Source: a virus. From it: a stretch of 64,000 bases of DNA. Shown one piece after another: positions 23,637 through 52,566 of this stretch. Location: IMG/VR virus record IMGVR_UViG_3300009347_000008. One strand, 5' to 3'. The notes beneath the pieces were generated by a model, which was not told the DNA's origin, ran no database searches, and was given only the letters and a program-made list of their open reading frames with translations. The first letter of the stretch is position 1, and each line of letters begins with the position of its first letter. The translations under genes and the position numbers were made by a program.

Positions 23637-24932
23637 TTAATTACCTCTTAATTGTGCAGCCTTAATGAATAAGTCATTCGAGGCAAGTTCTTCTAACAAA
23701 CGTTGAGTATTCTTTCTTGAAGAGAGAACCCAGTTACTTGGATAGATGATGTTACCAGCAAGACCCATGATGGACGTAAAGTCTTTGGTTTCATCGATGA
23801 TCTTATCCACAGAAGCCAGTGTGACCAAAGTCTTACTAGCGATTCCCCTATCAAGACTCTTGACTTTCAATCTGGAGATTAGTTGTTCTCTGATTCGCTT
23901 ATATCTGGTCTTCAGATTGTCGTATACATTATTGGTGTCAGAACCAATAGAACTATTCCAAGAAATCAGGAAGAACAATGCCGCCCCGAAGCCAAGGAAC
24001 GGTAAAACACCTACAGCACCAATCAACATCATGTAGCTGATCAAAGACAACTCTACTAAATTGATCAAGAATCGTGTCTCACCAGAATACTCAGGAGATC
24101 CATAAGCACGATGAATTTTCTCAAGACCAGTTACCAACTCACGGCCTAATCCCATACGGGTTGCATAGTTATCGGCTAGTGCTTCGTAAGTAGTCTTATC
24201 GTAGGCAGCAGTACCCAATTCAGATACACGCTTTTCTTGGATCTTAGCCAGAACAACAGTAGTCACCACGGTAGTATCGGTCTCATCCCTGAGTTCAGCA
24301 TAAACACCAGTACTAGGGCCAATCTTCTTCTCCGCCAGCTTCAACGAATATTCAAAGAGTTGTTGATCCTTAGCAACTAAGGATTTGTGTAGCGCTAAAA
24401 GAATCTGATTAGTTTGAATGGTATTGAAAGCCAACTCATAAGCAACGAACGCATGACCAACTTCATGCATAAAGACGGCAGCTACTTCAGCAGCAGACAA
24501 CTTCAAAGTCTTCAAATGTCTAAAACCCATGAAGATTTGAGTTGGAACAGTCGAGAATGCACCGCCAACCTTGGCAGACTTCAAATCAACAAATGTCTTC
24601 TCATTATCTTCAAGTTGTTTGATGATCTTATTTGCATCCTTGCTGTAGTATGCTTTAAAGACATCGTCACCAAGAATACTATTCGGGCTAATATGAATTG
24701 GAAGCATACATGGAGGATACTCCGTGTTAAACTTCAAATCAATCTTCAGACCGGTTTCTTTCTCGATATAGGTCTTAAGTGTTTTAGCAGCTTCTGATTC
24801 ATCTGCCTCCTTACCACTCTTGGATTTTAGGATATCTTCCATAAGCACAGTCAGTTGATCAGCGACTACAGAAGATTGGAAATCAATCGCCTCCGTAGCA
24901 ACATTCGTGCTGTTGATGTCTAAAAAATTCAT
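23637..24932 (-). CDS. Membrane-associated zinc metalloprotease-like protein (431 aa)
   Basis: HEVGH (HExxH) motif in AAEVAAVFMHEVGHAFVAYEL plus a C-terminal TM segment LISYMMLIGAVGVLPFLGFGAALFFLISW; overall resemblance to M48/HtpX-type peptidases. Confidence 0.5.
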   Translation of the reverse strand: MNFLDINSTNVATEAIDFQSSVVADQLTVLMEDILKSKSGKEADESEAAKTLKTYIEKETGLKIDLKFNTEYPPCMLPIHISPNSILGDDVFKAYYSKDANKIIKQLEDNEKTFVDLKSAKVGGAFSTVPTQIFMGFRHLKTLKLSAAEVAAVFMHEVGHAFVAYELAFNTIQTNQILLALHKSLVAKDQQLFEYSLKLAEKKIGPSTGVYAELRDETDTTVVTTVVLAKIQEKRVSELGTAAYDKTTYEALADNYATRMGLGRELVTGLEKIHRAYGSPEYSGETRFLINLVELSLISYMMLIGAVGVLPFLGFGAALFFLISWNSSIGSDTNNVYDNLKTRYKRIREQLISRLKVKSLDRGIASKTLVTLASVDKIIDETKDFTSIMGLAGNIIYPSNWVLSSRKNTQRLLEELASNDLFIKAAQLRGN

Positions 24933-25017
24933 TTTGTATTCCTAGGAAAAAATGTACGTGAATATTCAAATTATTAAGTACTTAATAACTAATATGCGAA
25001 AGCGAAAGGATTAGAAA

Positions 25018-26481
25018 ATGAAAGACTTTTTAAATTTGAAACAGGGTGAAGTTGGAATCGAATGTCGCTTCGCAACGTACGTCAAATCACCCCAACCCGA
25101 GTTGCCGGATTTACATCTTGTAAAAGAGCAAGTACATAAGGATGACGGTACAATTGTACCAACCGTAAAGCCTGTCTATAATTACGAACGACCTTATTGG
25201 ATTGTTAAAAAAGGTTGTCGTAATTTCAATCAGCCTAAAGAGTGGATTGAAAAAGAACGTGTCAATGAATTCTATTCGACACAAACAGACCTCCTATACA
25301 AGGCAGCATCGTCTCTAGGTAAACCATACTTTAAGAAGTCAATTAAAGACCTAGCAGCAGAGAGCCCGTATCTCTTTGGTATCGACATTAAGAGTACAGC
25401 AGTTATCAAGCAGGATTACATGGTTAAGTATCCTGATCTAAAGACTGAATATTCAGTAGGCGTGTTCGATACAGAAACTGATGTCATCCATGGGACTGAT
25501 GAAATTACCATGGCTACTTTTAGCTTTGGTAAGATTTGCTTCACAGCAGTACAGAAGAGTTTCTTCAAAGGTATTGCCAATCCAGAGCAAGAGGTTCTTG
25601 AAAAGACTAATAAGTATCTCGATCAATATATAACTAAGCGAGGTATCAAACCTGTATTAGTTATTGTGGACTCCGAGATCGATGTTCTAATTGAGACATT
25701 CAAAGTCATTCATGAAGCTAAGCCAGACTTTCTCTCTATCTGGAACATGAAGTTCGATATCGGTAAGATTCTAGAAGCTTGTGAACGTGCTAACTTCCCG
25801 ATTGAACATTTGATGTGTGATCCGTCTGTACCTAATGAGTACAGATCTTTCAAGTTTATTCTTGGCCCTAATCAAAAGAAGACTGCTAGTGGGTTGGTCA
25901 TGCCAATCAAACCAGCAGCGCAATGGCATACTGTCAAATGTCCTGCCTCCTTCTACGTGATCGACGCGATGTGTGCTTATAAACACACTCGTATGGGTGA
26001 ACAAGAAAAGAAGTCGTATAGCTTAGATTTCATTTTAGGTGAGGAGTTAAACTTAGGAAAGCTTAAGTTTGAAGAAGCCAATCATCTATCAGGTCTAGAT
26101 TGGCATAAATTTATGCAAGAGTTCTACCCTGTCGAATATGTAGTATATAACAGATTCGACTGTATTGGTATGGAACTACTTGAAGATAAAGTTAAAGACA
26201 TGCGAGTTGTGCTTCCGCAATTCTCTGGTTCTTCTGACTTTGAAGACTTTAAGTCTCAACCACGTCGTAAGATGGACGCTCTACATTGGTTCGTTCAGAA
26301 ACACGGCCGTGTAATGGGGTGTACTTCCTCAGCTTTGGTTGATGAAGAACTCGATCCAATGATCTTGGGGCGTGATGAATGGATTATTACTCTAGCTCCT
26401 TCACTTATTACGAGAGAAGGTCTACGAGTCATTGAGGAGAATCCAGAACAAGTTACAACGATCTATGGTCACGTTGGAGAT
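25018..26481 (+). CDS. Family-B DNA polymerase, exon 1: N-terminal domain plus 3'-5' exonuclease domain. The terminal stop codon of the ORF is probably intronic.
   Basis: Exo I-like FDTETD, Exo II-like WNMKFDIGKIL (NxxxFD) and Exo III-like YVVYNRFDCIGMELL (YxxxD). The ORF ends ~95 aa after Exo III, exactly where polymerase motif A is expected. Confidence 0.65.
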
Positions 26482-28166
26482 TAACTAAAGATACTGACAC
26501 GTCTATTATATGTTGTAGCTTATATAATAGGTTTAACGTGTTTACAAGAAAAGAACTTTACGTACCTTTTTCTGGAAGAAGATATATTATCACTAATACT
26601 GGTAAGATATTAGATTCTGAGAAGAAAGAAATTCCTGTTGAAATAATTGATAGGTCTATTTTTGTGGAAATTGATTGGTTACTTGGTAGGAGAAAATATC
26701 TCTTGTCTGTAATAGTAATGTTCACTTATGGATCTCTTAAAGTACCAGATCATCTACTAGACTTAGTAGAACCTCTTTACGTTGATGGTGATTTTAGAAA
26801 TTTAACACCCCAGAATCTTATCTATAGATTCAAAACCCCACTAGAAGTAGAAAACTATCCTGGTTTTTTCCTTATACCCTTTTATGTTAATTACGCTTTA
26901 AGTAAGAATGGCTCATTAATTAATATAGAAACTGGTAAGGAAAAACAATGGTCAGTAACATCAACTGAAAACAATAAAAAGAATCAAAAAGGTGGCTATT
27001 ACTTTAGCCGTGTACTTAATGATTTCGGTTTCAGTAAGTGTTTATTTCTACACAGAGCATTATGTTTAGTTTTCAAAGAGTACGATAACAAAGTCCAGTC
27101 ACTTGTGGTCAATCATAAGGATGGTAATCCATCTAATAACCACTTAGATAATATCGAATGGTCTACTTATAAAGAAAATAATAATCACGCTATTGCCATG
27201 GGTCTTAGATCAGATAATAAACCTATCTTATCGAAGAACATTAAAACTGGTGAGATCATGAAATTCTCCAGTATTAATGAATGTGGAAGGTATTACAATG
27301 CTCCTAGAGCAGGTTTTATCCAACATAGGTTGAAGAAATCTGGCAATAAAATATATTCGGATTATTTATTATTTAAGTATGACGACGGGACAGAGTGGCC
27401 ATCGATAGACCTTAATAAAGTCGAAATTATCCGAGGCGGCAGAAGTGACTTAATCAAAGCTAGAAATGTCTTTACTGGTGATGTTATTTTATTCTTAGGT
27501 GCTGAAAAAGGCTCTCACTTAACAGGTGTTAAAAAAGCTACTATTTTAAATCACGTAAAAAAAGGACACTTGATACCTTGTAAAGGTTGGAATTTTAAAT
27601 GGGACAACGACGAGACTCCGTGGCCTAACCACACACATCGTCATTTGAAAGTCTATGAAAAATTCCCAATCTTTCCTCCCACTGGTGCAATTATTTTTGA
27701 TACGGAATTAAACGAGGAGCTTTTCTTTGAGAGTGTAGCTTTAGCGTGTAATTTCTTAAATATCACTAAACATGTTTTTAGTGATTACGCTAAATCAAAA
27801 ACTTTATTAAAGAAAAGATATTCGCTTACGTATTTTCATCTTGTGAAAAGTCTAGGTCTCCCTACAGAGTAATCTGTAGTAAAAAACTATGTGAATTGAC
27901 TGGAACAAGCTTAGAGCCTCATACACTCCCTACTCCAGTAATGAGAGTAGTACAGTAAAAGAGATGAGGATTGTTTAACCAGCAGCCAAGCTTCCTGACC
28001 AACGACGTGAGTCGCCGTCAGGGTGAAGGTTCAGAGACTACATACCACAAGTGTGGTTAGCGCATAGCCCCATTATTCAATGGGTGAAGATATAGTCCGA
28101 TCTATAAGGAAACCTTATAGCGGGTGCCATAGCGTACCGGCTTAGTCTAACGAACTAAGTGGACAG
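26482..28166 (+). mobile_element. Group I intron (~1.7 kb) in the DNA polymerase gene, carrying an HNH endonuclease ORF; boundaries approximate
   Basis: Canonical P7 elements: R = GGTTCAGAGACTACA (28026-28040) and S = GAAGATATAGTCC (28088-28100), with the P7 pairing GACTA/TAGTC. A P9 hairpin TATAAGG-aaa-CCTTATA follows. The intron ends with G28166, directly before an in-frame exon whose first residues are KLDVSASYPN (polymerase motif A). Confidence 0.6.
26538..27872 (+). CDS. Intron-encoded HNH homing endonuclease (444 aa; GTG start)
   Basis: HNH core VVNHKDGNPSNNHLDNIEWSTYKENNNHA; located inside the group I intron. Confidence 0.7.
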   Translation: MFTRKELYVPFSGRRYIITNTGKILDSEKKEIPVEIIDRSIFVEIDWLLGRRKYLLSVIVMFTYGSLKVPDHLLDLVEPLYVDGDFRNLTPQNLIYRFKTPLEVENYPGFFLIPFYVNYALSKNGSLINIETGKEKQWSVTSTENNKKNQKGGYYFSRVLNDFGFSKCLFLHRALCLVFKEYDNKVQSLVVNHKDGNPSNNHLDNIEWSTYKENNNHAIAMGLRSDNKPILSKNIKTGEIMKFSSINECGRYYNAPRAGFIQHRLKKSGNKIYSDYLLFKYDDGTEWPSIDLNKVEIIRGGRSDLIKARNVFTGDVILFLGAEKGSHLTGVKKATILNHVKKGHLIPCKGWNFKWDNDETPWPNHTHRHLKVYEKFPIFPPTGAIIFDTELNEELFFESVALACNFLNITKHVFSDYAKSKTLLKKRYSLTYFHLVKSLGLPTE

Positions 28167-28384
28167 AAGTTAGACGTTAGTGCTAGTTATCCTAATGGAG
28201 AGACGTGTTTCAACATTAGTAAAGAGACCACAGTGCGTGAACTATCTACTATTGATGGTATTCCCGAAGCTGTGTTCAGAAAACAGAACATGGGGATCAG
28301 TGCTGGTCATGTAAATGCACTCGATTACTGTTCTACAATGTTGGGCTTCCCAACACTATTTGAACTGGAAGAAATGACATGGTA
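28167..28384 (+). CDS. DNA polymerase B exon 2 (72 codons) containing polymerase motif A; the frame terminates at TAA 28382-28384
   Basis: KLDVSASYPNGETCFNISKETTV resembles the T4/RB69 polymerase segment DLTSLYPSIIRQVNISPETI (recalled from memory). The frame is continuous with exon 1 once the intron is removed. Confidence 0.5.
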
Positions 28385-28738
28385 ACCTACTCTTTTGCTG
28401 CTGAAGCGAAAGAGATTTTCAAGGGGGCGGAACTTTCCGCCCTTATTGAATATCTTGATCGTAAGACTGTCTGTATTCTTCATGGACATAAATTAGACGA
28501 GATTGACCGTATCGGATTCCTACAGGAATTTGAGAAGGTTACAGAAAGCCTTGATCCCAAAATTCTTGAGGATTTGGTTATGCTTCGTATTTACTATAAT
28601 AACTGCATTGGCGGCTCTATTAAAGTAAGTACTGAGCATCAGATTCAGTTCGATATTCTTGTCAAACGTTTCCAGGAGTATACACAAGATGCCATTGTCC
28701 GCAGAATTCGAACTCACGGCCTTAAGGAATACGTCTAA
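28379..28738 (+). CDS. Hypothetical 119-aa ORF in the -1 frame relative to exon 2; possibly a further polymerase fragment (weak motif-B-like RIYYNNCIGG)
   Basis: Its ATG overlaps the exon-2 stop (ATGGTAA). RIYYNNCIGG is a weak match to the Kx3NSxYG motif. No motif C (YGDTDS) was found downstream. Confidence 0.35.
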   Translation: MVTYSFAAEAKEIFKGAELSALIEYLDRKTVCILHGHKLDEIDRIGFLQEFEKVTESLDPKILEDLVMLRIYYNNCIGGSIKVSTEHQIQFDILVKRFQEYTQDAIVRRIRTHGLKEYV

Positions 28739-29222
28739 AAGATTGAGTGAGACTATCTCACTTCTTTCCCAAGAAACGAATCTCTTTACCTTTAAAAGGC
28801 TAAAGTCCACCTCCTCTATCGTGGGGGAATGGACTGCTTTGAATCTTCATACTTTCTCCACCACTAAAGCCATCTTAAAATATGCGGAGAATTTTCTACC
28901 TTCTTTCGTTTATTTTGAGAATAAGATACGTGAGTTGAAAGGGGAATTCATTTCACTCACTATTCTCTATGAAAATGACGAGACTCAAAAGTCTATTAAT
29001 AAATTTGAGGAGCTATACTTCAGCGCGATGAATGAGTTGAATTCTATTCATTCGTTATCTGGAGTTAGTTTTAGAGAGTTCAACAAGAAGATGGGAAACG
29101 CTACCTTTAGGGTCAACCGTCTAATTGATTTTACCAGTCATTTTCATTTGAGGATGCTCCATGATATCGCAATCCAAAGCGCACAAAATGGCTCAACTAC
29201 AAAGAGAGTACCCAACGTATAA
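28689..29222 (+). CDS. Hypothetical protein (~177 aa from MPLSAEFEL...)
   Basis: ORF with an AGGAG sequence ~12 nt upstream of ATG 28689; overlaps the previous ORF. Confidence 0.4.
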   Translation: MPLSAEFELTALRNTSKRLSETISLLSQETNLFTFKRLKSTSSIVGEWTALNLHTFSTTKAILKYAENFLPSFVYFENKIRELKGEFISLTILYENDETQKSINKFEELYFSAMNELNSIHSLSGVSFREFNKKMGNATFRVNRLIDFTSHFHLRMLHDIAIQSAQNGSTTKRVPNV

Positions 29223-29652
29223 CTTGGGTCTTCAAGATTATCTTGACAAGTTCTATATCTTAAAAGATGCAGAACCTATTCGCTATGTGAAGCTGACTAA
29301 AATCCAACGAGTATGGCATTTCTTCTCTTACAATAGAGAAGCTTTGCTAACTCACTGGGGGAAGATTGTTCCTTACGTCACTCTTATTTATAACAATGTT
29401 CTTGCGATAAATATTCTATTTAAGCAAGCTAATGTTAACTCTAACCTCTTGGTGGCTAAGAGTATCGACAAACTAAGATTTTACAGAAGGAGGATTCTCT
29501 CAAACCGTTTGAATCTTGAATTAGGCATAAAGAAAATGTCTAGAAGACAAATCAATATCAAGATCAATCAGATTTATGACGATGCTTTGTCTTTTCAACT
29601 AATCGCGGATGATCTTTATAAGAGGATGCATAATGGGTTTTATTACCACTAG
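29161..29652 (+). CDS. Hypothetical protein (163 aa)
   Basis: ORF overlapping both neighbours, in a different frame. Confidence 0.4.
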   Translation: MISQSKAHKMAQLQREYPTYNLGLQDYLDKFYILKDAEPIRYVKLTKIQRVWHFFSYNREALLTHWGKIVPYVTLIYNNVLAINILFKQANVNSNLLVAKSIDKLRFYRRRILSNRLNLELGIKKMSRRQINIKINQIYDDALSFQLIADDLYKRMHNGFYYH

Positions 29653-30109
29653 ACGAATCATAAAAGCTTTGTCTAGTCTTGAGAAGGAAGTTAATCTGAT
29701 CGAAATAGATCTACTTACGTTTTTGAGCTACTTCAATAAAGATCCTAATACTTTCAGAGGTATAACGGATTTCTTCTATAGAGATAGAGCACTCAAAGAT
29801 AAACGCTTCTCAAGATTCGGCGAGGCAATAGCAACAAATGTACAATCAATTATACTTCATATGGAAAGAATGAAGCTAATACTTGATAAACAAAAACACA
29901 ATGGTTGTGCTCATACTTCCGAACTACGTAAACTAATAAATCTAAGAAAAGGGTTCTTAGATAGGAAGTGTGATGAGTTCCTAATTGCTGTTTATGATCT
30001 TCGTATTGAGGATATGGAGATTGATAAGACGCAATTAAAGTTCAGCATTGTTGATACATTAGAACGCCTTAAAATTGAGACTAGAAACTATTCTCTTAGA
30101 CTTCAATGA
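29609..30109 (+). CDS. Hypothetical protein (166 aa)
   Basis: ORF, followed by the terminator at 30121-30153. Confidence 0.4.
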   Translation: MIFIRGCIMGFITTRRIIKALSSLEKEVNLIEIDLLTFLSYFNKDPNTFRGITDFFYRDRALKDKRFSRFGEAIATNVQSIILHMERMKLILDKQKHNGCAHTSELRKLINLRKGFLDRKCDEFLIAVYDLRIEDMEIDKTQLKFSIVDTLERLKIETRNYSLRLQ

Positions 30110-30120
30110 AGTACATACGA

Positions 30121-30153
30121 CATAAAGGGAGTCCCGAAGGACTCCCGTTTATG
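30121..30153. terminator. Terminator hairpin CATAAAGGGAGTCC-CGAA-GGACTCCCGTTTATG
   Basis: A ~14-bp perfect palindrome with the conserved CGAA loop, between convergent genes. Confidence 0.7.
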
Positions 30154-30274
30154 CTGTTTATGAAGAAAGAAAGTTAGCGTTTCCTAAACAATCAACACCT
30201 AATCCTAAGTGAGCGGGAAACTTGGAGTCGTTCCATCAACTTAGCTTGTCCTGTAGAGCGGACTCTACATATTA

Positions 30275-30700
30275 TTAGACTGTCTTCTGAACGTATTGAT
30301 TAGGCTGATAGAAGAGTCGAACATCGGTAGAGTATTCGATTTCATCTCCACCAATGTAGCGATAGATCATCTGGATTTTAAAGTTGTTAACAGCATTCGT
30401 GTCAACTCTACGAACAATGTAAACAAACACAACGTCCAGTACTTCAATATTAGGAACCACTCTAGGGAACCCAATGGATTTGAAGTCTTCGATGAAGTTA
30501 TTAACACCCAGATTCAAGATCTGTAGATCCTTCAATTCTTTAATGCAACGGTTGTAGCCTTCCTGTAGTTGGAAGTACATGTCGTTAGCATCAGAGTAAT
30601 TGGTCTTAGGAAATACGGCATAACCTGCAATCTTGTTAGGATCATGGTTACGTACATCCTGGATCATTTTGTTGATCTGACGTTCTGTTAAACGGCTCAC
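30275..30700 (-). CDS. Hypothetical protein (141 aa)
   Basis: ORF coupled to the downstream dcd-like gene. Confidence 0.5.
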   Translation of the reverse strand: MSRLTERQINKMIQDVRNHDPNKIAGYAVFPKTNYSDANDMYFQLQEGYNRCIKELKDLQILNLGVNNFIEDFKSIGFPRVVPNIEVLDVVFVYIVRRVDTNAVNNFKIQMIYRYIGGDEIEYSTDVRLFYQPNQYVQKTV

Positions 30701-31332
30701 ATCTTTCTCCTAGGCAGAACTGGCTCCGCTGGTTGATCTTGATACTTACCACTACGGTCAGCATAAGAGACTTCGCATGGTTCATTACCATGAATGAATA
30801 GAACTTGACAAATACCCATACCAGGTGTCAGCTTGATAGGTGAGTCAGTCTTATTGCTAAGCTCCAGAGTAACATAGCCTTCCCAACCAGCTTCCAAAGG
30901 CGTTACAGTCACGCAAAGGCCACAGCGCGCAAGTGTGCTCTTTTCCATACAGATCGCAGTAAACTCATCGCCGAGCTTAATACGTTCTTTTGAAACACCA
31001 AGCATGAAACCATGAGGCGGAATGGTAATGCATTCATCATCTCTCAATTCATGACGTGATGCGATAGCTTCATTAAAGTTAACAGGATCGATAACGTCTG
31101 GACCAATTGAATCACGAACAGATCTAACTTCAACGTTTAGGTTATTAGGATTACTACGATTGAAGAATCGGAAGATATTACCTAGACGAATGTCATAACC
31201 GAAACTAGAGAGACCGTAACTAGTTACAGGTGTACCATCTTCATTACTACTACGGGATTCAGCATGAAAAGGTACGATCAGTTGATCATTTTCAGCTTTG
31301 AACTTAATCCATTTATCCGACATGATAGGCAT
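30697..31332 (-). CDS. dcd: dCTP deaminase-like protein (dUTPase superfamily; 211 aa)
   Basis: SSFGYDIRLGN and KSTLARCGLCVTVTPLEAGWEGYVTLELSN resemble conserved Dcd/Dut-family segments. Confidence 0.55.
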   Translation of the reverse strand: MPIMSDKWIKFKAENDQLIVPFHAESRSSNEDGTPVTSYGLSSFGYDIRLGNIFRFFNRSNPNNLNVEVRSVRDSIGPDVIDPVNFNEAIASRHELRDDECITIPPHGFMLGVSKERIKLGDEFTAICMEKSTLARCGLCVTVTPLEAGWEGYVTLELSNKTDSPIKLTPGMGICQVLFIHGNEPCEVSYADRSGKYQDQPAEPVLPRRKM

Positions 31333-31383
31333 AAACTACTCCTTATTGTTTTCTATGCAGAATATTCAAATCTTAGGTAAAAA

Positions 31384-32247
31384 TTAGATTTGTTTATCCA
31401 GGGATCTGAACCATTTTGTAGCGATCCACTTCGTACCTTCGATAACAGGCGTTCCTGCATGAAGTGTCTTACTCTGAGGGGTAGGGTTAGGATAAGCAAA
31501 GAAAAGCGCACTGCCCTTCTTACAATGAACATGAAGATTCAATTCGGGGAAATATGTAGTACCTCCTCGTGTCGGATCACCTAAATAGAGAATCAAAGTA
31601 GCTACACGTTCTCCAACACCTCTTACAAAGGTACTTCCATCCGCAAAGTAATCGTGATGAGGTTTGTATTGTTCACCAATACGATAGCGAAGTACTTGAA
31701 GACTATCAGTATCATTGTTATTCCAGTTAAACAAAATACTAATACGATCTTCCACATTTTTGACAATGTCGTCTTGTCCTTTACTAAGTCCAGTGCTATC
31801 ACTGGTTCTATAGTCGGAGAGTGTCGATTGTCCTTGACCATGTATCGCTACAGTGCTCTTAGATAAACTGACCATAGCAAGATCAATCAAATGTTGACAT
31901 TCAATTGGGTCAAGGAAATTCTCTAGGAGAATAACTTCTGGATTCTCCATAGACATCAGAATATTAATCTCTCTGCCTTCAACTTTTAGTACATTGTGTT
32001 TTTCTTTCATTTGTTTAATGTACGGATTGATTGTAGAGATTCTAACGTTATTAACCGCAATGGTTTCTGTCAAAGCTCCTTTAGCTTGATCATTCAAGGC
32101 TATGACAGTATTGATTAGGTCTTTCGAGTCTTGGATGGATAATCCAAACTTAGTTACTAGATCGCTAATAATGGCGGTATCTGCTCTAAACTGTGAGAGC
32201 GCAGTTCCAATGAACTGATGATATTCAGGTGTAAGTTTCGTTGGCAT
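31384..32247 (-). CDS. 2OG-Fe(II) oxygenase, prolyl 4-hydroxylase-like (287 aa)
   Basis: HxD...H facial triad (PHHDYF ... TLHAGTPVIEGTKWIATKWFR), as in the P4H C-terminal domain. Confidence 0.65.
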   Translation of the reverse strand: MPTKLTPEYHQFIGTALSQFRADTAIISDLVTKFGLSIQDSKDLINTVIALNDQAKGALTETIAVNNVRISTINPYIKQMKEKHNVLKVEGREINILMSMENPEVILLENFLDPIECQHLIDLAMVSLSKSTVAIHGQGQSTLSDYRTSDSTGLSKGQDDIVKNVEDRISILFNWNNNDTDSLQVLRYRIGEQYKPHHDYFADGSTFVRGVGERVATLILYLGDPTRGGTTYFPELNLHVHCKKGSALFFAYPNPTPQSKTLHAGTPVIEGTKWIATKWFRSLDKQI

Positions 32248-32309
32248 TTTGATTCCTAACGGTCATAAAAAGGGTATCCAAAGGATACCCTTTTATTGTT
32301 ATTTATGCA

Positions 32310-32636
32310 TTAAGCAGCATCAACAACAGTACCGTTGAGTTCAACAGACTCGGGCTCCATAGCCAGAACCGTGACTTCCAGAGTACCAGTCAGGGGCGAA
32401 TCCAAACCACCACCCGACACAGTCAGACTAACGGTAGCAGTGCCAGGGGCAACGGGGGTCACCTTACCAACAGTATTACCAGCGCCAGTACCTTCCACGG
32501 TAACAAACTCGCTACCAGCGGTCACTGACCATGCATAAGTAGCGCCAGCAGGGGCAGCCACCACGGAACCGAGCTTGTCCTTGAAAACAGCATCGATGTT
32601 AACTAGCTTACCTGCAACGTCAACTGAAACAGCCAT
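32310..32636 (-). CDS. Small Ig-like (Big_2-type) domain protein (108 aa), GC-rich; possible capsid/virion decoration protein
   Basis: Ala/Gly/Thr/Val-rich beta-sandwich-like sequence (GTATVSLTVSGGG); local GC is well above background. Confidence 0.5.
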   Translation of the reverse strand: MAVSVDVAGKLVNIDAVFKDKLGSVVAAPAGATYAWSVTAGSEFVTVEGTGAGNTVGKVTPVAPGTATVSLTVSGGGLDSPLTGTLEVTVLAMEPESVELNGTVVDAA

Positions 32637-32670
32637 AATTAACTCCTAGTTATTTAACAAAAAACGTTGA

Positions 32671-33030
32671 TTAAGGATTATCCTCAACTGTTGATTCGAA
32701 ATCAACAGCAGTAGGTAATTCTTCACCGATCAACACAGTGAAGGTATTAGTCAAAGTGACAGGACGATCATCATCAAAAGTATCTTTGAAAGCGACCGTA
32801 CAAGTAACCTTAACAGTACCCTGTCCACCACCAGCTTTAGGGGCAATCTTTCTAATTGTTCCATCGCCAGGTGTAATTTCGGAGATCGTAGCAATCACTG
32901 GATTGTCGATAGCCCATGTAAATACTGCATCCGAAGGAAACGGAAGTTTAGTATTCTCTGAGTTTTTTCCGACCACAGTGAGTGCCAGAAACTTCCCTTC
33001 AACAGGTATTAGTACTGACATAGTTATCAC
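32671..33030 (-). CDS. Second small Ig-like domain protein (119 aa)
   Basis: Similar Big_2-like pattern (ATISEITPGDGTIRKIAPKAGGGQGTVKVTCTV). Confidence 0.45.
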   Translation of the reverse strand: MITMSVLIPVEGKFLALTVVGKNSENTKLPFPSDAVFTWAIDNPVIATISEITPGDGTIRKIAPKAGGGQGTVKVTCTVAFKDTFDDDRPVTLTNTFTVLIGEELPTAVDFESTVEDNP

Positions 33031-33508
33031 TTCTCTCGTACTTTAATATATTAAAATTGATACCAGTCACAGAGCGATGGGATGATTTTGTGATTATTTT
33101 CCACTCATCCGCAAGTTCTTCAACGGTAGTATCGCCTTCATAGTTATTAAGTATTTCGGTCACGATAACAGTGTCTGCTACCCTCAGTGCTTTCTTAATT
33201 ACATTGCTTCCACCAATGAACCAGATATCCTTTCTTCGATAGAAAGCTTCGTTAGTTGCTTCCAAAATCGAACGAGATGTAATAACTTCTGGATGATAGA
33301 GAGGGGAGCTAGTTAATACGAGATTTTCTCTATTAGGCAGTGGTTTAATTGGGAGTGATTCCCAAGTCTTTCTACCCATAGCTATTATACAGCCTTGTGT
33401 GGTTTCTTTGAAATGCTTTAAGTCTTCCGGTAAATGCCAGGGTAATTTGCCGTTATTACCAATGACATTATTGAGACTCCTAGCATAGATAACACCGACT
33501 TTCATCAC
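32999..33508 (-). CDS. folA: Dihydrofolate reductase (169 aa)
   Basis: VIGNNGKLPWHLPEDLKHFKETT and LVLTSS ... FIGG are the hallmark DHFR motifs. Confidence 0.85.
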   Translation of the reverse strand: MMKVGVIYARSLNNVIGNNGKLPWHLPEDLKHFKETTQGCIIAMGRKTWESLPIKPLPNRENLVLTSSPLYHPEVITSRSILEATNEAFYRRKDIWFIGGSNVIKKALRVADTVIVTEILNNYEGDTTVEELADEWKIITKSSHRSVTGINFNILKYERSDNYVSTNTC

Positions 33509-33933
33509 TGATTCTCAATGAATTTCTTGATGCCTCTAGCATCCGCCAAAGCGTTGTGAGGCTGTTCACTTGGAGCATCCACACGTTTGAGTACGAAGCT
33601 GAGTTTGTTTGGTGTTTTAACACAAACACCCGGTGCAACAAGTAATGCTTCGCAGAGATACTTGATATCGTCAGGCCAATCGGCTACTACAACAAGATCT
33701 TTGTATCTGTTAATGAAAGCTTCAAGCTTTTGCTTAAAGTCATGTGGTGCAATGGGTTCCTTATTAAGGATAGGCATCACATTTTCTGCTACCCAAGAGA
33801 CTGGATTAGGACAACCTAATACTTCATAGAAATAGTTATCGTCATCGATAACTAATGCTAATGAAATCAAGTCACCTTTATAACCGTTAAATTCACAATC
33901 AAGATACGCTACTGTCATTTTGACTCCTCTCAA
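33505..33933 (-). CDS. DEDDh-type 3'-5' exonuclease (RNase T/oligoribonuclease-like); the true start may be the internal Met (MTVAYLDCEF), 15 nt downstream
   Basis: YLDCEF (Exo I DxE), VADWPDD and HNALADARG (the H-x4-D Exo III motif of DEDDh enzymes). Confidence 0.55.
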   Translation of the reverse strand: MRGVKMTVAYLDCEFNGYKGDLISLALVIDDDNYFYEVLGCPNPVSWVAENVMPILNKEPIAPHDFKQKLEAFINRYKDLVVVADWPDDIKYLCEALLVAPGVCVKTPNKLSFVLKRVDAPSEQPHNALADARGIKKFIENQ

Positions 33934-34138
33934 ATTTCTTCAGGTTGATTTCTCTGATACGATTCTCGATATCAGTAACGGAACATCTCATCCAGTCTAG
34001 TGTTGGTCCTTGGGCCTCACCATCATCCATATATGGTAATTCTTCATGAGCAACACAGAGCAGTCTTCGCAACTTACGCTCATCCTGACTAGCTGGCATT
34101 CCGTCTGGTCTTCTCTCGGTGGTCATCTTAATCTCCAA
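33899..34138 (-). CDS. Small hypothetical protein (79 aa)
   Basis: ORF between the exonuclease gene and nrdF; weak support. Confidence 0.3.
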   Translation of the reverse strand: MEIKMTTERRPDGMPASQDERKLRRLLCVAHEELPYMDDGEAQGPTLDWMRCSVTDIENRIREINLKKFERSQNDSSVS

Positions 34139-34140
34139 AC

Positions 34141-34166
34141 ATAAAGGGAGGCCGAAGCCTCCCTTT
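34141..34166. terminator. Hairpin GGGAGGC-CGAA-GCCTCCC
   Basis: Palindrome with a CGAA loop, flanked by ATAAAG/CTTTAC. Confidence 0.6.
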
Positions 34167-34168
34167 AC

Positions 34169-35176
34169 TTAGTTACCTCTCCAACCTGCCCAATCGGCAT
34201 CGGTAGTAGGTTCGACACGCAGCATTGCGTATGCTGAACCGCCACCAGAGAAGAAATCGTGAGTTTCATCTCCGGCAGGAACCAATGATGCCATGACGGC
34301 AGGATTGACCTTACAAATCTCCGGTGGGAACATAGGATCAAAACCCATATTCATCAATGCCTTGTTGGCATTGTAATGGAGATAATTGATAACGTCTTCT
34401 GTCATACCCAGATCATCGTAGATGCTTCGGGTATATTCGATTTCGTTCTCATACAACTCCATCAGGAGAGAGTATGCCTTATCTCGGATTTCTTCTTGTC
34501 GTTCAGGAGTAAGTTCCCTGAAAGCCAATTGGAATTTATATCCGATGTAATGGCCATGAACACCTTCATCAGACAAGATCAATCGAATTATGTCGGCAGT
34601 GTTAGTCAGCTTACCGCGACTCGACCAGTAGAATGGAAGGTAGAAACCAGAGTAGAACAGGAAAGATTCCAGCAATACACTAGCTACCTTACGCATCATC
34701 GGACATTGACCATCGTAATGACTGAGGACGATAGTTTGTTTCTTGATGAGTAGTGGATTCTCTCCAGTCCAGCGGAACAAATCATCAATTTCTTCTGAAC
34801 TACAAAGAGTAGAGAAGATACTGGAATAGCTCTTAGCATGGATAGCTTCCATGGCTGCAATGAATTCCAAGTTAGCATCCTCATGAGGAGTACGCGCATC
34901 TGGTTTCATCGAAAGAGCACCAACTTGTGACTGAACGGTGTCAAGTAAAGTCAGTCCAGCAAGGACTTCCATAGTCCTACGCTTTTCAAGATCAGTCAAT
35001 GTTCCCCACGTCATTATGTCGTTAGAAACTGGAACACGTTCAGGCAACCAGAAGTTGCTGGTCATGCGGTTCCATACTTCAAGATCTTTAGGGTCTTCAA
35101 CTTTATTCCAATTGATAGCTGGAATGAGTTTTGGAGTTGTGTTATTTTCCATTTGAAAGCTTTTCTCTTTCTGCAT
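34169..35176 (-). CDS. nrdF: Ribonucleotide reductase class Ib beta subunit (335 aa)
   Basis: Ferritin-like R2 motifs, including the conserved Glu/His ligand pattern (e.g. LSDEGVHGHYIGYKF; the second ligand block is ambiguous between two candidate segments and is not cited). Confidence 0.85.
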   Translation of the reverse strand: MQKEKSFQMENNTTPKLIPAINWNKVEDPKDLEVWNRMTSNFWLPERVPVSNDIMTWGTLTDLEKRRTMEVLAGLTLLDTVQSQVGALSMKPDARTPHEDANLEFIAAMEAIHAKSYSSIFSTLCSSEEIDDLFRWTGENPLLIKKQTIVLSHYDGQCPMMRKVASVLLESFLFYSGFYLPFYWSSRGKLTNTADIIRLILSDEGVHGHYIGYKFQLAFRELTPERQEEIRDKAYSLLMELYENEIEYTRSIYDDLGMTEDVINYLHYNANKALMNMGFDPMFPPEICKVNPAVMASLVPAGDETHDFFSGGGSAYAMLRVEPTTDADWAGWRGN

Positions 35177-35299
35177 TCAGGTGATTGATTTCTTCGTCTG
35201 TTGTCTTGATCTTGTTACGCCTAGAGATTTCCTCATCGGTAAGAGTCAGATCGCACAGATCATTGTTTGTCTATTGCTCGATATGTTTCTTCGAGGATG

Positions 35300-35626
35300 T
35301 CAGACTTTACTATAAGTCTCTAGGAAAATATCTTCTTTGATTGGATAAAACTCACCCTTAGTTCCTTGAACAATCCAATCGCCTTCAGTGGCGATATGGT
35401 CAACTTGATGTGAGCTTCCAGCTTCACCATCTTCTAAAGTAACAATACGTGCTTGTGCTTTAGAGCCAACGTGTCGAGCTTTCGTAATGTCCTTGATGTT
35501 TTCACCAAGGAAATCTAGCAGGTCTTGACTAGGGGGATAGGTGAATTGAATTGCACGGACTCGGACTGGCTTCTTGACGAATTCACCAACACCGGGCGGT
35601 AGTTTATCGATCTCAATAATTGACAT
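35300..35626 (-). CDS. Hypothetical protein (108 aa) between nrdE and nrdF
   Basis: ORF. Confidence 0.5.
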   Translation of the reverse strand: MSIIEIDKLPPGVGEFVKKPVRVRAIQFTYPPSQDLLDFLGENIKDITKARHVGSKAQARIVTLEDGEAGSSHQVDHIATEGDWIVQGTKGEFYPIKEDIFLETYSKV

Positions 35627-35643
35627 CTTCGTTTCCTATTTGA

Positions 35644-37776
35644 TTAAACAGCGCAAGACACGCAACCTTCCACTTCAGTTCCCGACAGAATCGACTTACG
35701 CAGACGAACATAATAGATCGTCTTGATGCCCTTACTGCGTGCGTAGATCTGCATCTTGTTAATGTCTCGGGTGGAAACATTATCAGGCAAGAAGATCGTC
35801 AGAGACAATCCTTGATCAACGTGGGGTGTAGCAGCAGCGTAAACATCGATAACAGCTTTGTAACCAAGCTCGTATGCATCAACGAAGAACTCAAGGTTAT
35901 CGTTGGTCATGTGTGGAGCGGGATAGTAGCTACGACCAGTCTTACCTTCCTTACGGATTTCAATCTTAGCTGCGATTGGGTGAATCGAAGCTGTCGAATT
36001 GTTCACATAAGAAATAGAACCAGTTGGCGGGATAGCCATACGGTACTGGTTATACAAACCGTGTTCCATTACCAGATCACGAAGAGCTTCCCACATTTGT
36101 TTAGTAGGAACTTCGAAACCATATTCAGCAAACAGCTTTTTGATCTGCTCGGTCTGTGGAGTCAAATCACGATTAAGGTATTGGTCGAAATAAACACCGC
36201 TAGCGTAATCAGACTTCTCAAAACCTTGGAATGTTTCCTTCTTCTCTTGAGCAATCTTGCAGCTCGACAAAATCGAATGATAATTCACTGCCATGAAGAA
36301 CAGATCAGTGAAGTCAATGGACGCTGGACTACCATACATGATACGGTGATGACCAAAGAATCCATGGAGATTCATTGCACCCAGACCAATGGCATGGGAG
36401 ATCTTATTACCGTTATCAATCGAAGGAACACACGCAATGTTCGATAGATCAGAAACCTTGGTCAATGCGCGACATGCAACTTCAATAGTCTTACTGAAGT
36501 TAGGTGAATGGAATGTCTTGAAAACGTTCAGTGAACCGAGGTTACAGGAGACATCTTTACCCACAACCTTATAGCTACCATCTTCGTTCATTTCCGAATC
36601 AGTCTGTACTTGCAGGATTTCACTGCAAAGATTAGACATACGAACATAGCCATCAATCGGATTAGCAGCGTTAACTACGTCTTCGTTCATGATGTAAGGA
36701 TAGCCTGATTCGCCGTTAATCTTACCGATAGCTTCCATTAGCTTACGAGCATTGACCTTCTTCTTACGAATCCCCTTGTTAGCTACGAGTTCATGATACC
36801 TTTCAGTAACATTAATCATACTCAGAGGAATACCGTAGATACGTTTCACATCGTAAGGTGAGAACAAATATAAAGCTTCGTTCTTCTCAGCTACCTCATA
36901 CAAGATGTCTGGAACAACAACCCCAATACTCAGAGTTTTAATACGAACCTTCTCATCCGCATTTTCACGCTTGGTATCAAGTACTGCCATGATATCTGGG
37001 TGGCACGCATGAACGTACACTGCGCCTGCACCATCGCGTTGTCCAAGTTGATCAGCGTAGCTGAAACCATCTTCGTATAGCTTCATAACAGGTACTAGAC
37101 CTGCGGCAGCGCCGTCGATACCCTTAATAGGAGCGCCAGCTTCACGAACGTCGGTCAAGCAAAGAGCAACCCCGCCGCCACGTTTAGACAATTGGAGTGC
37201 AGAGCCAATTGAACGAGCAATTGATTCCATGTCGTCAGGGACATTAATCAGGAAACAACTTACAGGTTCACCGCGTTGTTTACGGCCTGCGCTCAAGAAT
37301 GTAGGTGTAGCTGGCTGATAGCGTCCAGAAATGATTTCTTCTGCGTAGTCAAGTGCTTCTAGGATGTTACCATCGCCCAAATAAAGAGAACACATTGCCA
37401 CTCGATCTTCCAAACGTTCTAGATAACGTTGGCCATCATTGGTCTTTAGTGCATACTGCTTATAGAACTTGTAAGCACCTTGAAAAGACGCAAAACGGAA
37501 TTTGTGGGCATAAACAGATTTGAATAGCTTCTTGATATCTTCGTAGGAGTATTTATCAAGAAGTTCTTTCTCGTAATACTGGTTATCAACGAGATAATCA
37601 AGCTTTTCCTGAAGATCATGGAAGAACACCATGTTCTTATTCACATGTTGCAGGAAATATTGGCGAACGGCAATCTTATCCTTGTCAAATTGAATTTGAC
37701 CTTCTTCACTTAGCTGGTTAAGCATTGCATTGTAAGAGAAGTAGTCTTCTGCTACATTACTAACTGTTTGATCCAT
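35644..37776 (-). CDS. nrdE: Ribonucleotide reductase class Ib alpha subunit (710 aa)
   Basis: NLCSEI active-site Cys motif, a C-terminal CxxC pair (EGCVSCAV), and the overall R1 length and order. Confidence 0.9.
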
Positions 37777-38167
37777 TTTCGATCCTCAATTGTTTCTGAA
37801 TGATTTTTTGTACATTTAAGACATCGGATGGTGTACCCGATATCTCGAATTGATACAATAGTCTAGTCTTGAAGAAATGACTGACCACTTTAGCAGCTAT
37901 ACAGAACTTGCTACCGAAGTCAGTATTCCCTCCACCGATCACACCACGCATTAAGCTACTGTTTTTCTTATTAGCTAAGAATCTATTAACAACTTTTGGT
38001 ATCGCTGTTTCAACAGTATCTCCATAGCTCGGTAAGATGAGGATAAATGGTTCATCTATCTCGATCTCACACGTACCATTCAAAGGAAGCCTAATATTTT
38101 CAATATTAAGTTTTTGAACGAATCGATGAGTGCTTTCGGACTTACTAGACCAATAAACTACTTTCAC
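37760..38167 (-). CDS. nrdI: NrdI flavodoxin-like protein (135 aa)
   Basis: [16 protein letters not shown]...LILPSYGD is the NrdI pattern; positioned between nrdH and nrdE. Confidence 0.75.
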
Positions 38168-44370: not shown

Positions 44371-45162
44371 TTATCCAAATATACGTTTGTTTCTTTCGTC
44401 GATACTGCTATTAGTAAATGACTCTGGCTGAATTTCAATAACGTACTTACTGAATTCATCACCTTCTAAATGTACTTTCTTTCGCTTGATATAGATACCA
44501 TTCTTGAACTTGGTATTAATATTATCCCAATCGTATTTGTGTACTTCTTTGATAATACGGATACGTTCAACAAAAGTTTTATTATCAATATCTTTACCGA
44601 TACCTAAATCACTGCTGATAGCAATGATACATTTCTTGCTATTCTCTCTTTCTGCCCAAAGTAGAGCGTTGCCTGTTTCAGTTCTGTTAGGTACTCTGAA
44701 GATAGTAACATCAAAAGCTGGATAGACTCCACGATCATATAGTTCATCGATGTCCCTAGACTCTGCTAGTTTCAAAGAGAAGTGGGTGGCAGCAGAACTA
44801 GTAACAGCGCTTACTAGTTTTTGTTTCTTACCGCCATATTCAAGGGGAGCTTTCTCAGTTCCATGAATGACCATCATGATCTCTGAAACGCCCACATGTG
44901 CGTACTTAGCTTTAAAGGTGTTAAGCAGATAAGTAGCAGTTTGTTGCATTAGATCAAAGCATCCAAAATCGAATGGAGTTTCAAACACTTTGGAGAAACG
45001 TCGAATATTCTTGAAAGAAATCCTTACAAGAAGGACACTATTGGTAGGATTGAATGCTTGATCTTTCTCCTGATCTTGGTAGTAAGACATTCGTTCATAT
45101 AGACACATTCTACTTTTTTCTTTAGTAGTTAGTGGTTGGCCGGTCATAGGCTTTTCTCTCAT
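44371..45162 (-). CDS. Thg1-like protein (tRNA-His guanylyltransferase / 3'-5' nucleotidyltransferase family), ~263 aa from the internal Met (MREKPMTGQP...)
   Basis: LLVRISFKNIRRFSK resembles VVVRLDGRNFHRF of human THG1L (recalled). HVGVSEIMMVI is a weaker resemblance to the downstream GQSDEYSFVF block. An AAGGTGA RBS precedes ATG 45162. Confidence 0.5.
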   Translation of the reverse strand: MREKPMTGQPLTTKEKSRMCLYERMSYYQDQEKDQAFNPTNSVLLVRISFKNIRRFSKVFETPFDFGCFDLMQQTATYLLNTFKAKYAHVGVSEIMMVIHGTEKAPLEYGGKKQKLVSAVTSSAATHFSLKLAESRDIDELYDRGVYPAFDVTIFRVPNRTETGNALLWAERENSKKCIIAISSDLGIGKDIDNKTFVERIRIIKEVHKYDWDNINTKFKNGIYIKRKKVHLEGDEFSKYVIEIQPESFTNSSIDERNKRIFG

Positions 45163-45249
45163 CACTGTCACCTTTAAGTTACTGTATAATAACGGTATTA
45201 TACACATAATGTTTTTTGTTTATTTTATTTATCATTAGTACGGCATAAA

Positions 45250-46366: not shown

Positions 46367-46876
46367 TTACTTGCGAGGAGCAGCCTTGGTAGCAGCGCGA
46401 GGAGTTGCCTTCTTCGCAGCAGCCACGGCTTGACCTTGTTCCTTGAATGCAGTCAGCACCTTCTCAGCATTGGCTTGCAGCCATTCGAGAGGAACACCAT
46501 GTTGCAGTTCACGAGAAACAGGAGCACCCAGCAGAACCATCAACGGGATGTAATCGCGGGTTTCAGCACCGTAAGCACGAGCCAGTGCAATGTTCTTTGC
46601 GCTCTCGCGAGCAGCAGCGATCACACGGTTCGCATTACGAATGGCTTCGAACTGAGCACGCAGTTCAGCATCGGCAACACTATTGATTGCCATGATTTCC
46701 TTGACAGCAGCGCGAGTTGCTTCCTTACGGTTAGCAGCCAGTTCTTCTTCCATGATAGCTTGGATCTCAGCATCATGAATCACGGGCAGACCGAATGCAG
46801 CCAGAGCTTCCTTTTCAGCAGTGGAAGCAGCCAGATCAGTCAGGGCATGGATGTTAACAGCGATGAGCTTGTTCAC
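46367..46876 (-). CDS. Ala-rich protein with a basic C-terminal tail (169 aa), strongly GC-rich; candidate abundant DNA-binding/virion protein
   Basis: Composition (A/E/K-rich, C-terminal AAAKKATPRAATKAAPRK) and GC content far above background. Confidence 0.6.
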   Translation of the reverse strand: MNKLIAVNIHALTDLAASTAEKEALAAFGLPVIHDAEIQAIMEEELAANRKEATRAAVKEIMAINSVADAELRAQFEAIRNANRVIAAARESAKNIALARAYGAETRDYIPLMVLLGAPVSRELQHGVPLEWLQANAEKVLTAFKEQGQAVAAAKKATPRAATKAAPRK

Positions 46877-47073
46877 TTTGATTTCCTTTGTAGAAAGTTT
46901 TGGTTTGTATCCGCATTGCGGACTGTTTACTTCAATATCTCTTTCATAGCTACCGCCACGTCCATTAGCTACTTAGCTACTAGTTTGTGGGAAATGCAAG
47001 AGATACTAAGTATTACCCCATTTGCTGGGTGTTGTAACATATTAGTAGTCTTTCAAGTTAAACTTTCATTTCT

Positions 47074-50299: not shown

Positions 50300-50374
50300 T
50301 GGTGGGAAAAGCGGGATTCGAACCCACGCCTTAACGATTATGAGTCGTCAGTACTACCGCTATACGATCTTCCC
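50300..50374 (-). tRNA. tRNA-Met(CAU): tRNA-Met or tRNA-Ile2 (anticodon CAU), CCA encoded
   Basis: GGGAAGA acceptor stem pairs with TTTTCCC; anticodon arm GACGA-CTCATAA-TCGTT; T arm GTGGG-TTCGAAT-CCCGC. The G1-C72 pair argues for an elongator type. Confidence 0.75.
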
Positions 50375-52015: not shown

Positions 52016-52090
52016 TGGTGGGCGATCCAAGAATCGAACTTGGAACTAAAACTTAGAAGGTTCTTGTTATTTCCATTTAACTAATCGCCC
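52016..52090 (-). tRNA. tRNA-Arg(UCU): tRNA-Arg(UCU), CCA encoded
   Basis: Acceptor GGGCGAT/ATCGCCC; D stem GTTA/TAAC; anticodon arm AGAAC-CTTCTAA-GTTTT; T arm CCAAG-TTCGATT-CTTGG. Confidence 0.8.
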
Positions 52091-52478: not shown

Positions 52479-52566
52479 TGGCGGAAGAAGTGAGATTCGA
52501 ACTCACGGATAGTCACCCATCGCCGGTTTTCAAGACCGGTCCATTAAACCACTCTGGCACTCTTCC
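52479..52566 (-). tRNA. tRNA-Ser(UGA): tRNA-Ser(UGA) with a long variable arm, CCA encoded
   Basis: Acceptor GGAAGAG/TTCTTCC; anticodon arm CCGGT-CTTGAAA-ACCGG; long variable arm; T arm GTGAG-TTCGAAT-CTCAC; 88 nt. Confidence 0.8.

Follow-up and report, generated by a model that had tools for sequence, protein, structure and literature searches.

A predicted group I intron encoding an HNH endonuclease in a phiKZ-like jumbo phage gene for the N-terminal subunit of DNA polymerase

The sequence studied here is a 64,000-nucleotide (nt) window of the IMG/VR virus record IMGVR_UViG_3300009347_000008, and more particularly the locus at 26482–28384 within it. An earlier note had described this locus as a group I intron with an HNH endonuclease, splitting a family-B DNA polymerase gene immediately before motif A. 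The analysis presented here indicates that the segment 26482–28169 is very probably a mobile self-splicing group I intron, and that the interrupted gene encodes the N-terminal subunit of a phiKZ-type polymerase. The proposal of a group I intron containing an HNH open reading frame (ORF) is thus supported, whereas the exact 3' end, the position of the ORF within the ribozyme and the nature of the polymerase gene differ from those proposed originally.

Exon 1 (25018–26481, plus strand) provides codons 1–488, which cover an N-domain and a 3'–5' exonuclease, and ends ...IYGHVGD directly before an in-frame TAA (26482–26484). Exon 2 (28170–28385, plus strand) would provide codons 489–559 and the stop codon. 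Its coding part of 71 codons (28170–28382) reads LDVSASYPNGETCFNISKETTV...EEMTW, contains the motif A residues D490, Y495 and P496, and forms the usual C-terminal end for this protein family. Exon 1 matches positions 10–494 of the PHROG profile phrog_3011 ('DNA polymerase') with an E value of 5.5e-153, and the 71 codons from 28170 match positions 495–562, as a gapless continuation of the first match. The contiguous profile match and the homologue alignments bear out the proposal that the two exons are collinear parts of one protein. Of the exonuclease motifs reported in exon 1, FDTETD (residues 150–155) and YNRFD (residues 377–381) are present as described, but Exo II, given as NxxxFD, in fact reads WNMKFD, that is NxxFD.

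Exon 1 has matches in 298 phage records; those listed belong without exception to phiKZ-related jumbo phages. The closest is Burkholderia phage FLC9 (47% identity), followed by Ralstonia RP12, RP31 and FLC4 (approximately 41%) and phiKZ gp082 (36%). The matching proteins, of 627–651 residues, run on through the sequence H[IV][GA]D-LD[VI]SxSYPN, and residues D488, L489, D490, Y495 and P496 are invariant among 32 homologues. The neighbouring ORFs match phrog_3248, 3222, 3004 and 2767, and the gene order upstream of the polymerase is the same as in Ralstonia and phiKZ records. On this evidence the host genome is assigned to the phiKZ-like (Chimalliviridae-type) jumbo phages.

The polymerases of these phages form a divergent family-B clade (PMC7544198, PMC7824862). 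Comparison of the polymerase profile with the PDB by sequence alone gave marginal matches (E 0.18 to RB69), and it was therefore necessary to use hhalign, and structure prediction followed by Foldseek. Using hhalign, the T4-like PolB family is matched with 96.5% probability (E 8.8e-10). Here HVGDLDVSASYPNGETCFNISKETT aligns with RB69 VMSFDLTSLYPSIIRQVNISPET, and D490 of the spliced protein corresponds to RB69 D411; for the motif A pattern DxxSLYPS, DLDVSASYPNGETCFNISKETT aligns with RB69 FDLTSLYPSIIRQVNISPET. This agrees with the assignment to family B in the earlier note and places the split one codon before the motif A aspartate. The AlphaFold2 model of the spliced protein has high confidence over residues 1–436, and its top Foldseek matches in the PDB are RB69 gp43 (E 9e-14, approximately 450 columns).

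The gene does not, however, encode a whole polymerase. The spliced protein of 559 residues stops 63 residues past motif A, and motifs B (KxxxNSxYG) and C (YGDTDS), the fingers and the thumb, which characterise a complete PolB, are absent from it. Its homologues end approximately 60–160 residues past motif A, and intron-less homologues at 75–84% identity terminate in ...EMTW or ...EMIW. Since every homologue ends shortly past motif A, no motif B or C is to be expected later in the gene. Exon 1 had been described as stopping where a polymerase domain should begin; the gene is instead predicted to encode the N-terminal subunit (N-domain, exonuclease and motif A) of a split, divergent family-B polymerase. 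Such a division is known in the family, the phiKZ-type polymerase being split into separate polypeptides (PMC3201878) and described as a 'split subunit DNA polymerase' (PMC5105663). It is worth adding that PMC3201878 assigns both catalytic aspartates to the separate polymerase subunit. This conflicts with the hhalign result, in which the invariant DLD...YP of the N-terminal subunit aligns to motif A. The window was also searched for a partner subunit with motifs B and C, by a motif scan and by two PHROG scans of its large ORFs, and none was detected. Goslar gp039, annotated as a 'polymerase', was considered as a lead to the partner and rejected: no homologue of it occurs in the window, and it does not resemble PolB.

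The position of the intron was defined by comparison with relatives. An alignment-based scan of IMG/VR yielded 80 homologous loci; a scan of the same database with the single protein gave no matches, and the relatives surfaced only with the alignment. A megablast search of window positions 24000–30500 against the phage collection found no match. On the basis of these comparisons the predicted splice junction is placed at D488/L489, where the exons would join as GAU/UUA, giving HVGD-LDVSASYPN. The sequence at the ligated junction would be ...GGAGAU followed by UUAGACGUU. Intron-less homologues all read HVGD-LDV or GD-LD, with no added residue, including P0002, P0003, P0004, P0006 and P0007 at 75–84% identity. 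Further evidence comes from the intron-less locus L009 (78% nt identity), which in blastn aligns to 24973–26480 and to 28182–28459, with 13 nt between. These 13 nt correspond to base 26481 plus 28170–28181, which implies that exactly 1688 nt are removed. The sequence of L009 around the insertion site is CACGTAGGTGACTTGGACGTGGCAGCTAGTTACCC, which divides at the junction into CACGTAGGTGAC and TTGGACGTGGCAGCTAGTTACCC. The PHROG profile is likewise continuous across the junction (494/495).

The intron (plus strand) thus opens with the in-frame TAA and ends with G28169, the predicted omega-G, and a G is terminal in all six of the related introns that were aligned. The earlier note gave the intron as 26482–28166, ending in G. 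The 5' end and the terminal G are both retained here, the latter at 28169, and the 3' end moves by 3 nt. A 3' junction at 28166/28167 was rejected: it adds a lysine that no homologue has, breaks the continuity at 494/495, and leaves a guide matching at only 10 of 12 positions in an unrelated place. An intein is excluded, the ORF being in another frame, with stop codons between it and both exons.

The ribozyme core is well recognised. The Rfam group I model RF00028 (gathering score 50 bits) matches 27826–28120 with 66.5 bits (E 1.2e-14), over the full model from 1 to 253. The P7 elements and the P9 hairpin are present where they had been placed originally, the quoted core elements GGTTCAGAGACTACA and GAAGATATAGTCC being located at 28028–28042 and 28086–28098 respectively. 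All of the helices are on the plus strand. The first is the P2 hairpin (27862–27879, CUACAG-AGUAAU-CUGUAG), followed by P3 (27887–27893 with 28061–28067) and, inside it, P4 (27897–27903 with 27979–27984). P5/P5a/P5b and P6/P6a/P6b, the latter with a GUGA tetraloop, are found within 27887–28067. P7 is formed by GACUA (28036–28040) with UAGUC (28093–28097), and P8 (28069–28084) lies between its two strands. A P7.1-like hairpin (28044–28057) is located between P7 and P3', which may point to subgroup IA. The core is completed by the P9 hairpin (28102–28120), P9.1 (approximately 28123–28138), P9.2 (28141–28159), which has a conserved UAACGA loop, and a 3' tail that runs to the terminal G at 28169.

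In support of this fold, six related introns were aligned with MAFFT, a structure was derived with RNAalifold, and the pairs were counted. The structure covers P2, P4, P5, P6, P7, a CAAGUG hairpin, P8, P9, P9.1 and P9.2. Of the cells in the alignment, 90.8% are paired, compared with 34–41% when the partners are slid, and 27 of the 50 pairs have compensatory changes, in which both sides differ; none of 500 shuffles reaches this. Compensatory changes are present in five of the six pairs of P2 and in six of the seven pairs of P9.2, and P4, P5, P6 and the CAAGUG hairpin are also supported by covariation. P7 is invariant in the six introns, and in the intron of phage Goslar (discussed below) it reads GACCA/UGGUC, a compensatory change. 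MAFFT misplaces part of P3 and P5 for the window sequence, and these helices are given according to the Rfam alignment and a manual reading.

The internal guide sequence (27850–27861, plus strand) is located directly 5' of P2, as it is in the ORF-less relatives L008 and L012. Its first half, GUCUAG (27850–27855), is complementary to UUAGAC, the first six bases of exon 2 (28170–28175), and would form P10. Its second half, GUCUCC (27856–27861), is complementary to GGAGAU, the last six bases of exon 1 (26476–26481, plus strand), and would form P1, with a wobble pair U26481.G27856 at the 5' splice site. The 12-mer GUCUAGGUCUCC is thus complementary to the exon ends at 12 of 12 positions. This is the best site in the intron, and only 49 of 2000 shuffles reach 12/12 anywhere in it. 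The exon end and the guide are GGAGAU/GUCUCC in the window, GGUGAU/GUCACC in L008, GGUGAU/GUCAUC in L012, GCUGAU/GUCAGC in L055, GGGAU/GUCCC in L057, GCGGAU/GUCCG in L053 and GGAU/GUCC in Goslar. The P1 guide therefore covaries with the Gly/Ala codon of the exon in L008, L012, L055, L057 and L053, and the P10 pair in L055 is UUAGAU with AUCUAG. The earlier note had suggested a group I model search and the mapping of P1 and P10 as a means to fix the splice junctions; carried out here, these located the core and set the 3' junction at 28169/28170. A proximal guide, GUCU at approximately 26501, could form four base pairs with AGAU, which would put P1 upstream of the ORF. The distal guide of 6+6 base pairs was preferred to it, because the distal guide is conserved beside P2 in ORF-less relatives and covaries.

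The ORF (26538–27872, plus strand) starts with GTG and has 444 codons. It is predicted to encode an I-HmuI-like HNH homing endonuclease. Pfam HNH_3 matches residues 189–215 with a score of 26.2 (cut-off 24.8), and residues 149–229 match I-HmuI (PDB 1U3E) with an E value of 5.7e-6; the HNH motif VVNHKDGNPSNNHLDNIEWSTYKENNNH aligns with DHKDGNKDNNLSTNLRWVTQKIN of I-HmuI. Residues 112–432 match phrog_59, a common family. Identity to the HNH protein of phage HPP-Temi is 36% over the full length, to Goslar gp069 33% and to phiKZ gp179 29%. The ORF had been thought to lie in a P2 or P6 loop. The relatives argue otherwise: at this site L008 carries the same intron without an ORF, its 5' splice site and guide being only 16 nt apart, and L012 has a decayed ORF remnant between these same two points. 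This layout, with the distal guide, places the 444-residue ORF in the predicted P1 loop (26482–27849), between the 5' splice site and the guide. The last 23 nt of the ORF (27850–27872, SLGLPTE and the stop) overlap the guide and P2, with the UAA stop codon in the P2 loop, and an equal overlap is seen in L055, where the ORF ends NLGQPIE. Translation of the end of the ORF by ribosomes and formation of P1 would then be mutually exclusive.

On this basis we propose the following mechanism. GUCUCC of the guide would pair with GGAGAU of exon 1 to form P1, with the wobble at the 5' splice site, GUCUAG would pair with the start of exon 2 to form P10, and the core P3–P9 (27887–28120) would fold, with G28169 serving as omega-G. 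Two transesterifications would then ligate GAU to UUA and give the message for the 559-residue protein, while on unspliced RNA translation would halt at the TAA that opens the intron. In a mixed infection the HNH enzyme would make a nick or a break close to the DLD codons of alleles that lack the intron. Repair from the intron-bearing genome would then transfer the intron to the cleaved allele, together with part of the flanking exon. The distribution of the intron is consistent with such homing. Its presence or absence differs among close relatives, both types of allele being found at 75–98% protein identity, and the site is also held by a form that lacks the ORF (L008) and by one in which it has decayed (L012). 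Furthermore, L011 (ENA ERZ650260), which is 88.5% identical to the window in nt sequence over 7.2 kb, diverges from 26203, over the last approximately 280 nt of exon 1 (26203–26481). This divergent tract adjoins the intron of L011, which is inserted after DLD, and it looks like exon co-conversion during homing from a distant donor.

Several points weigh against this interpretation. We infer splicing, cleavage and homing from structure, homology and distribution. The Rfam score of 66.5 bits is below the 80–115 bits of several relatives, P5 is short, at 3 base pairs, and P1 must form across a loop of 1.37 kb. The covariation counts are somewhat inflated, the structure having been taken from the same alignment on which they were counted. 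Finally, residues 437–559 of the spliced protein (window 26326–26481 plus 28170–28382), which include motif A, are modelled by AlphaFold2 with a predicted local distance difference test score (pLDDT) below 50, and the model does not fix the functional form of the product. The model is unusable for this segment and was set aside as structural confirmation of the motif A region. The segment may perhaps fold only together with the separate polymerase subunit.

Introns are frequent in this gene. Of the 80 metagenomic homologues, 20 are interrupted, at four sites, and all 13 of the interrupted loci that were scanned have an Rfam group I match. Site A, after ...WI (residue approximately 456), is occupied in 16 of the 80 loci. 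Site B, after GD (488/489), is the site used in the window and is occupied in four, with Goslar, L008 and L012 as further carriers; L056 and L057 have ORF-less introns of 378–399 nt here. Site C, after DLD, is occupied in one, and also in HPP-Temi and L011. Site D, inside the Tyr codon of YPN, is occupied in three, and also in L007, L010 (NCBI GCA_020047275.1) and P0016. Sites A and B, and A and D, are found occupied together, whereas no examined locus has more than one of B, C and D occupied. L007 (ENA ERZ28615735) is 87.6% identical to the window in nt sequence over 4.4 kb and 98% identical in protein. Its intron is a different one, which interrupts the Tyr codon of SAS-YPN 19 nt downstream of the insertion site in the window, and this intron (L007 4446–5053) has a homologous HNH ORF (MVSIMLNLKVLPFSGGRYFV...). 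Between the two insertion sites nearly all synonymous positions differ between L007 and the window.

A different arrangement is found in L049 (IMGVR_UViG_3300002026_000043). It has a 50-nt insertion (7679–7728) in the Tyr codon of SSS-YPNG, which is preceded by U and has G as its last base, though at this length it falls far short of a ribozyme, and a complete group I core (7906–8212, 73 bits) past the stop codon of the polymerase. This locus might be a deletion derivative or misassembled, or it might have an odder origin.

In phages, the catalytic motifs of DNA polymerase genes are a classical location for group I introns bearing HNH genes, as in SPO1 and Bastille. The introns of SPO1, SP82 and phi-e (I-HmuI), of Bastille (I-BasI) and of Pf-WMP3 (I-PfoP3I) resemble that of the window in placing an HNH group I intron at a conserved catalytic region of a DNA polymerase gene. 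However, those polymerases belong to family A, whereas the window gene is a phiKZ-type family-B subunit. I-HmuI has 174 residues, compared with 444 for the window protein, which has in addition an N-terminal domain and, at its C terminus, a long DNA-binding region; its ORF is placed in the P1 loop.

Closer parallels are found in two distant phages with no DNA-level similarity to the window and polymerases 36–38% identical to that studied here. In Goslar (NC_048170) the same gene is arranged in the same way, the polymerase being followed by an HNH gene, a ribozyme core and the polymerase tail (gp068/gp069). Its exon 1 ends ...VAD followed by TAA, at the identical site, and its core scores 44.7 bits in Rfam (E 1.2e-9), below the gathering score. 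HPP-Temi (PP968062, CDS0345–0348) has the same gene and layout, with the intron 6 nt downstream: exon 1 ends ADLD followed by TAA, and the HNH gene lies between two 'DNA polymerase' coding sequences (CDSs) and is followed by an Rfam group I match of 59.2 bits. Over these stretches, the feature tables retrieved for the two genomes list CDSs but no intron. In Goslar (L005 3367–5128), gp068 is given as a 499-residue 'DNA polymerase' and exon 2 (LDISSSYPN..., from L005 5129) is unannotated, while in HPP-Temi (L004 3449–5170) the two 'DNA polymerase' CDSs are listed separately. An intron at the same site is thus predicted to be present, though unannotated, in deposited genomes. The earlier note considered the ORF and its placement to look distinct. 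This impression does not hold, given the same site in Goslar, the site 6 nt downstream in HPP-Temi, the 20 interrupted loci among 80 and the abundance of phrog_59.

Within the same family of phages and HNH proteins (24–29% identity), PhiPA3 gp210, phiKZ gp179 and EL gp185 are associated with group I introns in essential polymerase genes. Their targets are RNA polymerase (RNAP) genes, with EL gp185 occupying an RNAP-gene intron, whereas the window intron targets a DNA polymerase subunit gene. Introns in 'DNA polymerase subunits', with a content that varies between close relatives, have been reported in phiKZ-related Staphylococcus jumbo phages (bioRxiv 10.1101/2020.12.14.422802), although these belong to another lineage, with Gram-positive hosts and uracil DNA. 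The window intron is therefore an unexceptional example of a type of mobile element that phages, the phiKZ-like family among them, were already known to carry. The one mildly unusual aspect is that near-identical phages have introns at alternative, clustered sites at motif A.

This cluster bears on the role of the endonuclease. PhiPA3 gp210 acts in interference competition between phages (Birkholz et al. 2024, PMC11620839). By analogy, the window intron might splice as proposed while its endonuclease is selected mainly to cripple intron-less co-infecting phages by cutting their polymerase gene. This would add to the proposed splicing and homing, and we consider it possible but rather unlikely. 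In its favour, the ORF is homologous to the intron HNH proteins of the phiKZ family, the close relative L007 has its different intron only 19 nt away, and sites B, C and D are never found occupied together among the loci studied. Against this, the apparent co-conversion in L011 favours ordinary homing. A related and equally tentative suggestion is that the motif A codons are a contested landing pad, with three mutually exclusive sites (B, C and D) within 19 nt. Homologous HNH enzymes may serve each site, and occupation of one site may destroy the targets of the others. Phages as alike as those of the window and L007 would then bear rival introns, each shielding its own polymerase gene while attacking that of co-infecting relatives. 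If true, this would be competition of intron against intron by interference, aimed at DNA replication.

It could be argued that no splicing occurs, and that a free-standing HNH gene has fractured the polymerase gene into two pieces that are translated separately and then assemble, as in T4-like gene 43. There are precedents for this, in that phiKZ-type polymerases are already split into subunits (PMC3201878, PMC5105663) and GenBank lists the Goslar and HPP-Temi genes as separate CDSs. The polymerase of a T4-like Acinetobacter phage, vB_AbaS-Bhz15 (PV067732, L106 1280–2788), is also split by inserted ORFs (43A/43B). Its first polypeptide ends approximately 70–90 residues past motif A, a break point that corresponds to the natural end of the phiKZ-type N-terminal subunit. 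There the split is one of polypeptides, and the intervening sequence holds ORFs but no ribozyme, whereas the split of the window gene at motif A would be repaired at the RNA level. In the window a complete group I core directly follows the ORF, and the guide is complementary, through P1 and P10, to precisely these exon ends, with covariation among relatives. Moreover, exon 2 has no in-frame start before motif A, its first being the GTG at 28233, past the invariant DLD-YPN, and ORF-less introns occur at the same site in L056 and L057. A fractured gene is thus most improbable. There is equally little to recommend a decayed intron that no longer splices, leaving the subunit gene a pseudogene or a source of only a truncated 488-residue exonuclease protein: the Rfam score is below that of several relatives, the Goslar homologue falls under the gathering score and L012 shows that the ORF can decay in these introns, but in the window the core helices, guide, omega-G and 444-residue ORF are all intact, exon 2 retains each invariant residue of the family, and the gene belongs to the core replication set of this phage family (PMC10299810).

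Other features of the window may be mentioned briefly. On the minus strand, directly 3' of the ORF at 46370–46972 (same strand), there is a twister-sister ribozyme match (RF02681, 46289–46367; 41.9 bits, gathering score 34, E 6.8e-6). Three tRNA genes (minus strand, Rfam 54–64 bits) are found at 50303–50374, 52019–52090 and 52482–52566, and near them is a tRNA-His guanylyltransferase-like ORF (44374–45219, phrog_4717). A putative nucleotide-metabolism cluster occupies 30697–38167 on the minus strand. It comprises ORFs resembling a dCTP deaminase (30697–31332) and a 2-oxoglutarate (2OG)-Fe(II) oxygenase (31384–32247), a ribonucleotide reductase (RNR) small subunit (34172–35176, matching profile phrog_86), a putative RNR large subunit (35644–37776) and a small NrdI-like ORF (37760–38167). 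In the intron-less relative L013, Pfam identifies DCD and 2OG-FeII_Oxy_3 on genes homologous to ORFs of this cluster.

The finding does not change the understanding of group I introns or of homing endonucleases. Its consequences are for the annotation and biology of these phages. The polymerase subunit of the window should be annotated as one 559-residue protein from two exons, and a like correction applies to the truncated gp068 of Goslar and to the two 'DNA polymerase' CDSs of HPP-Temi. The gene for the DNA polymerase subunit would join the essential genes colonised by HNH introns in nucleus-forming jumbo phages, with about a quarter of the metagenomic relatives examined bearing such introns. 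The polymerase introns are natural candidates for the role of phage weapon that has been shown for one intron endonuclease of this family (PMC11620839).

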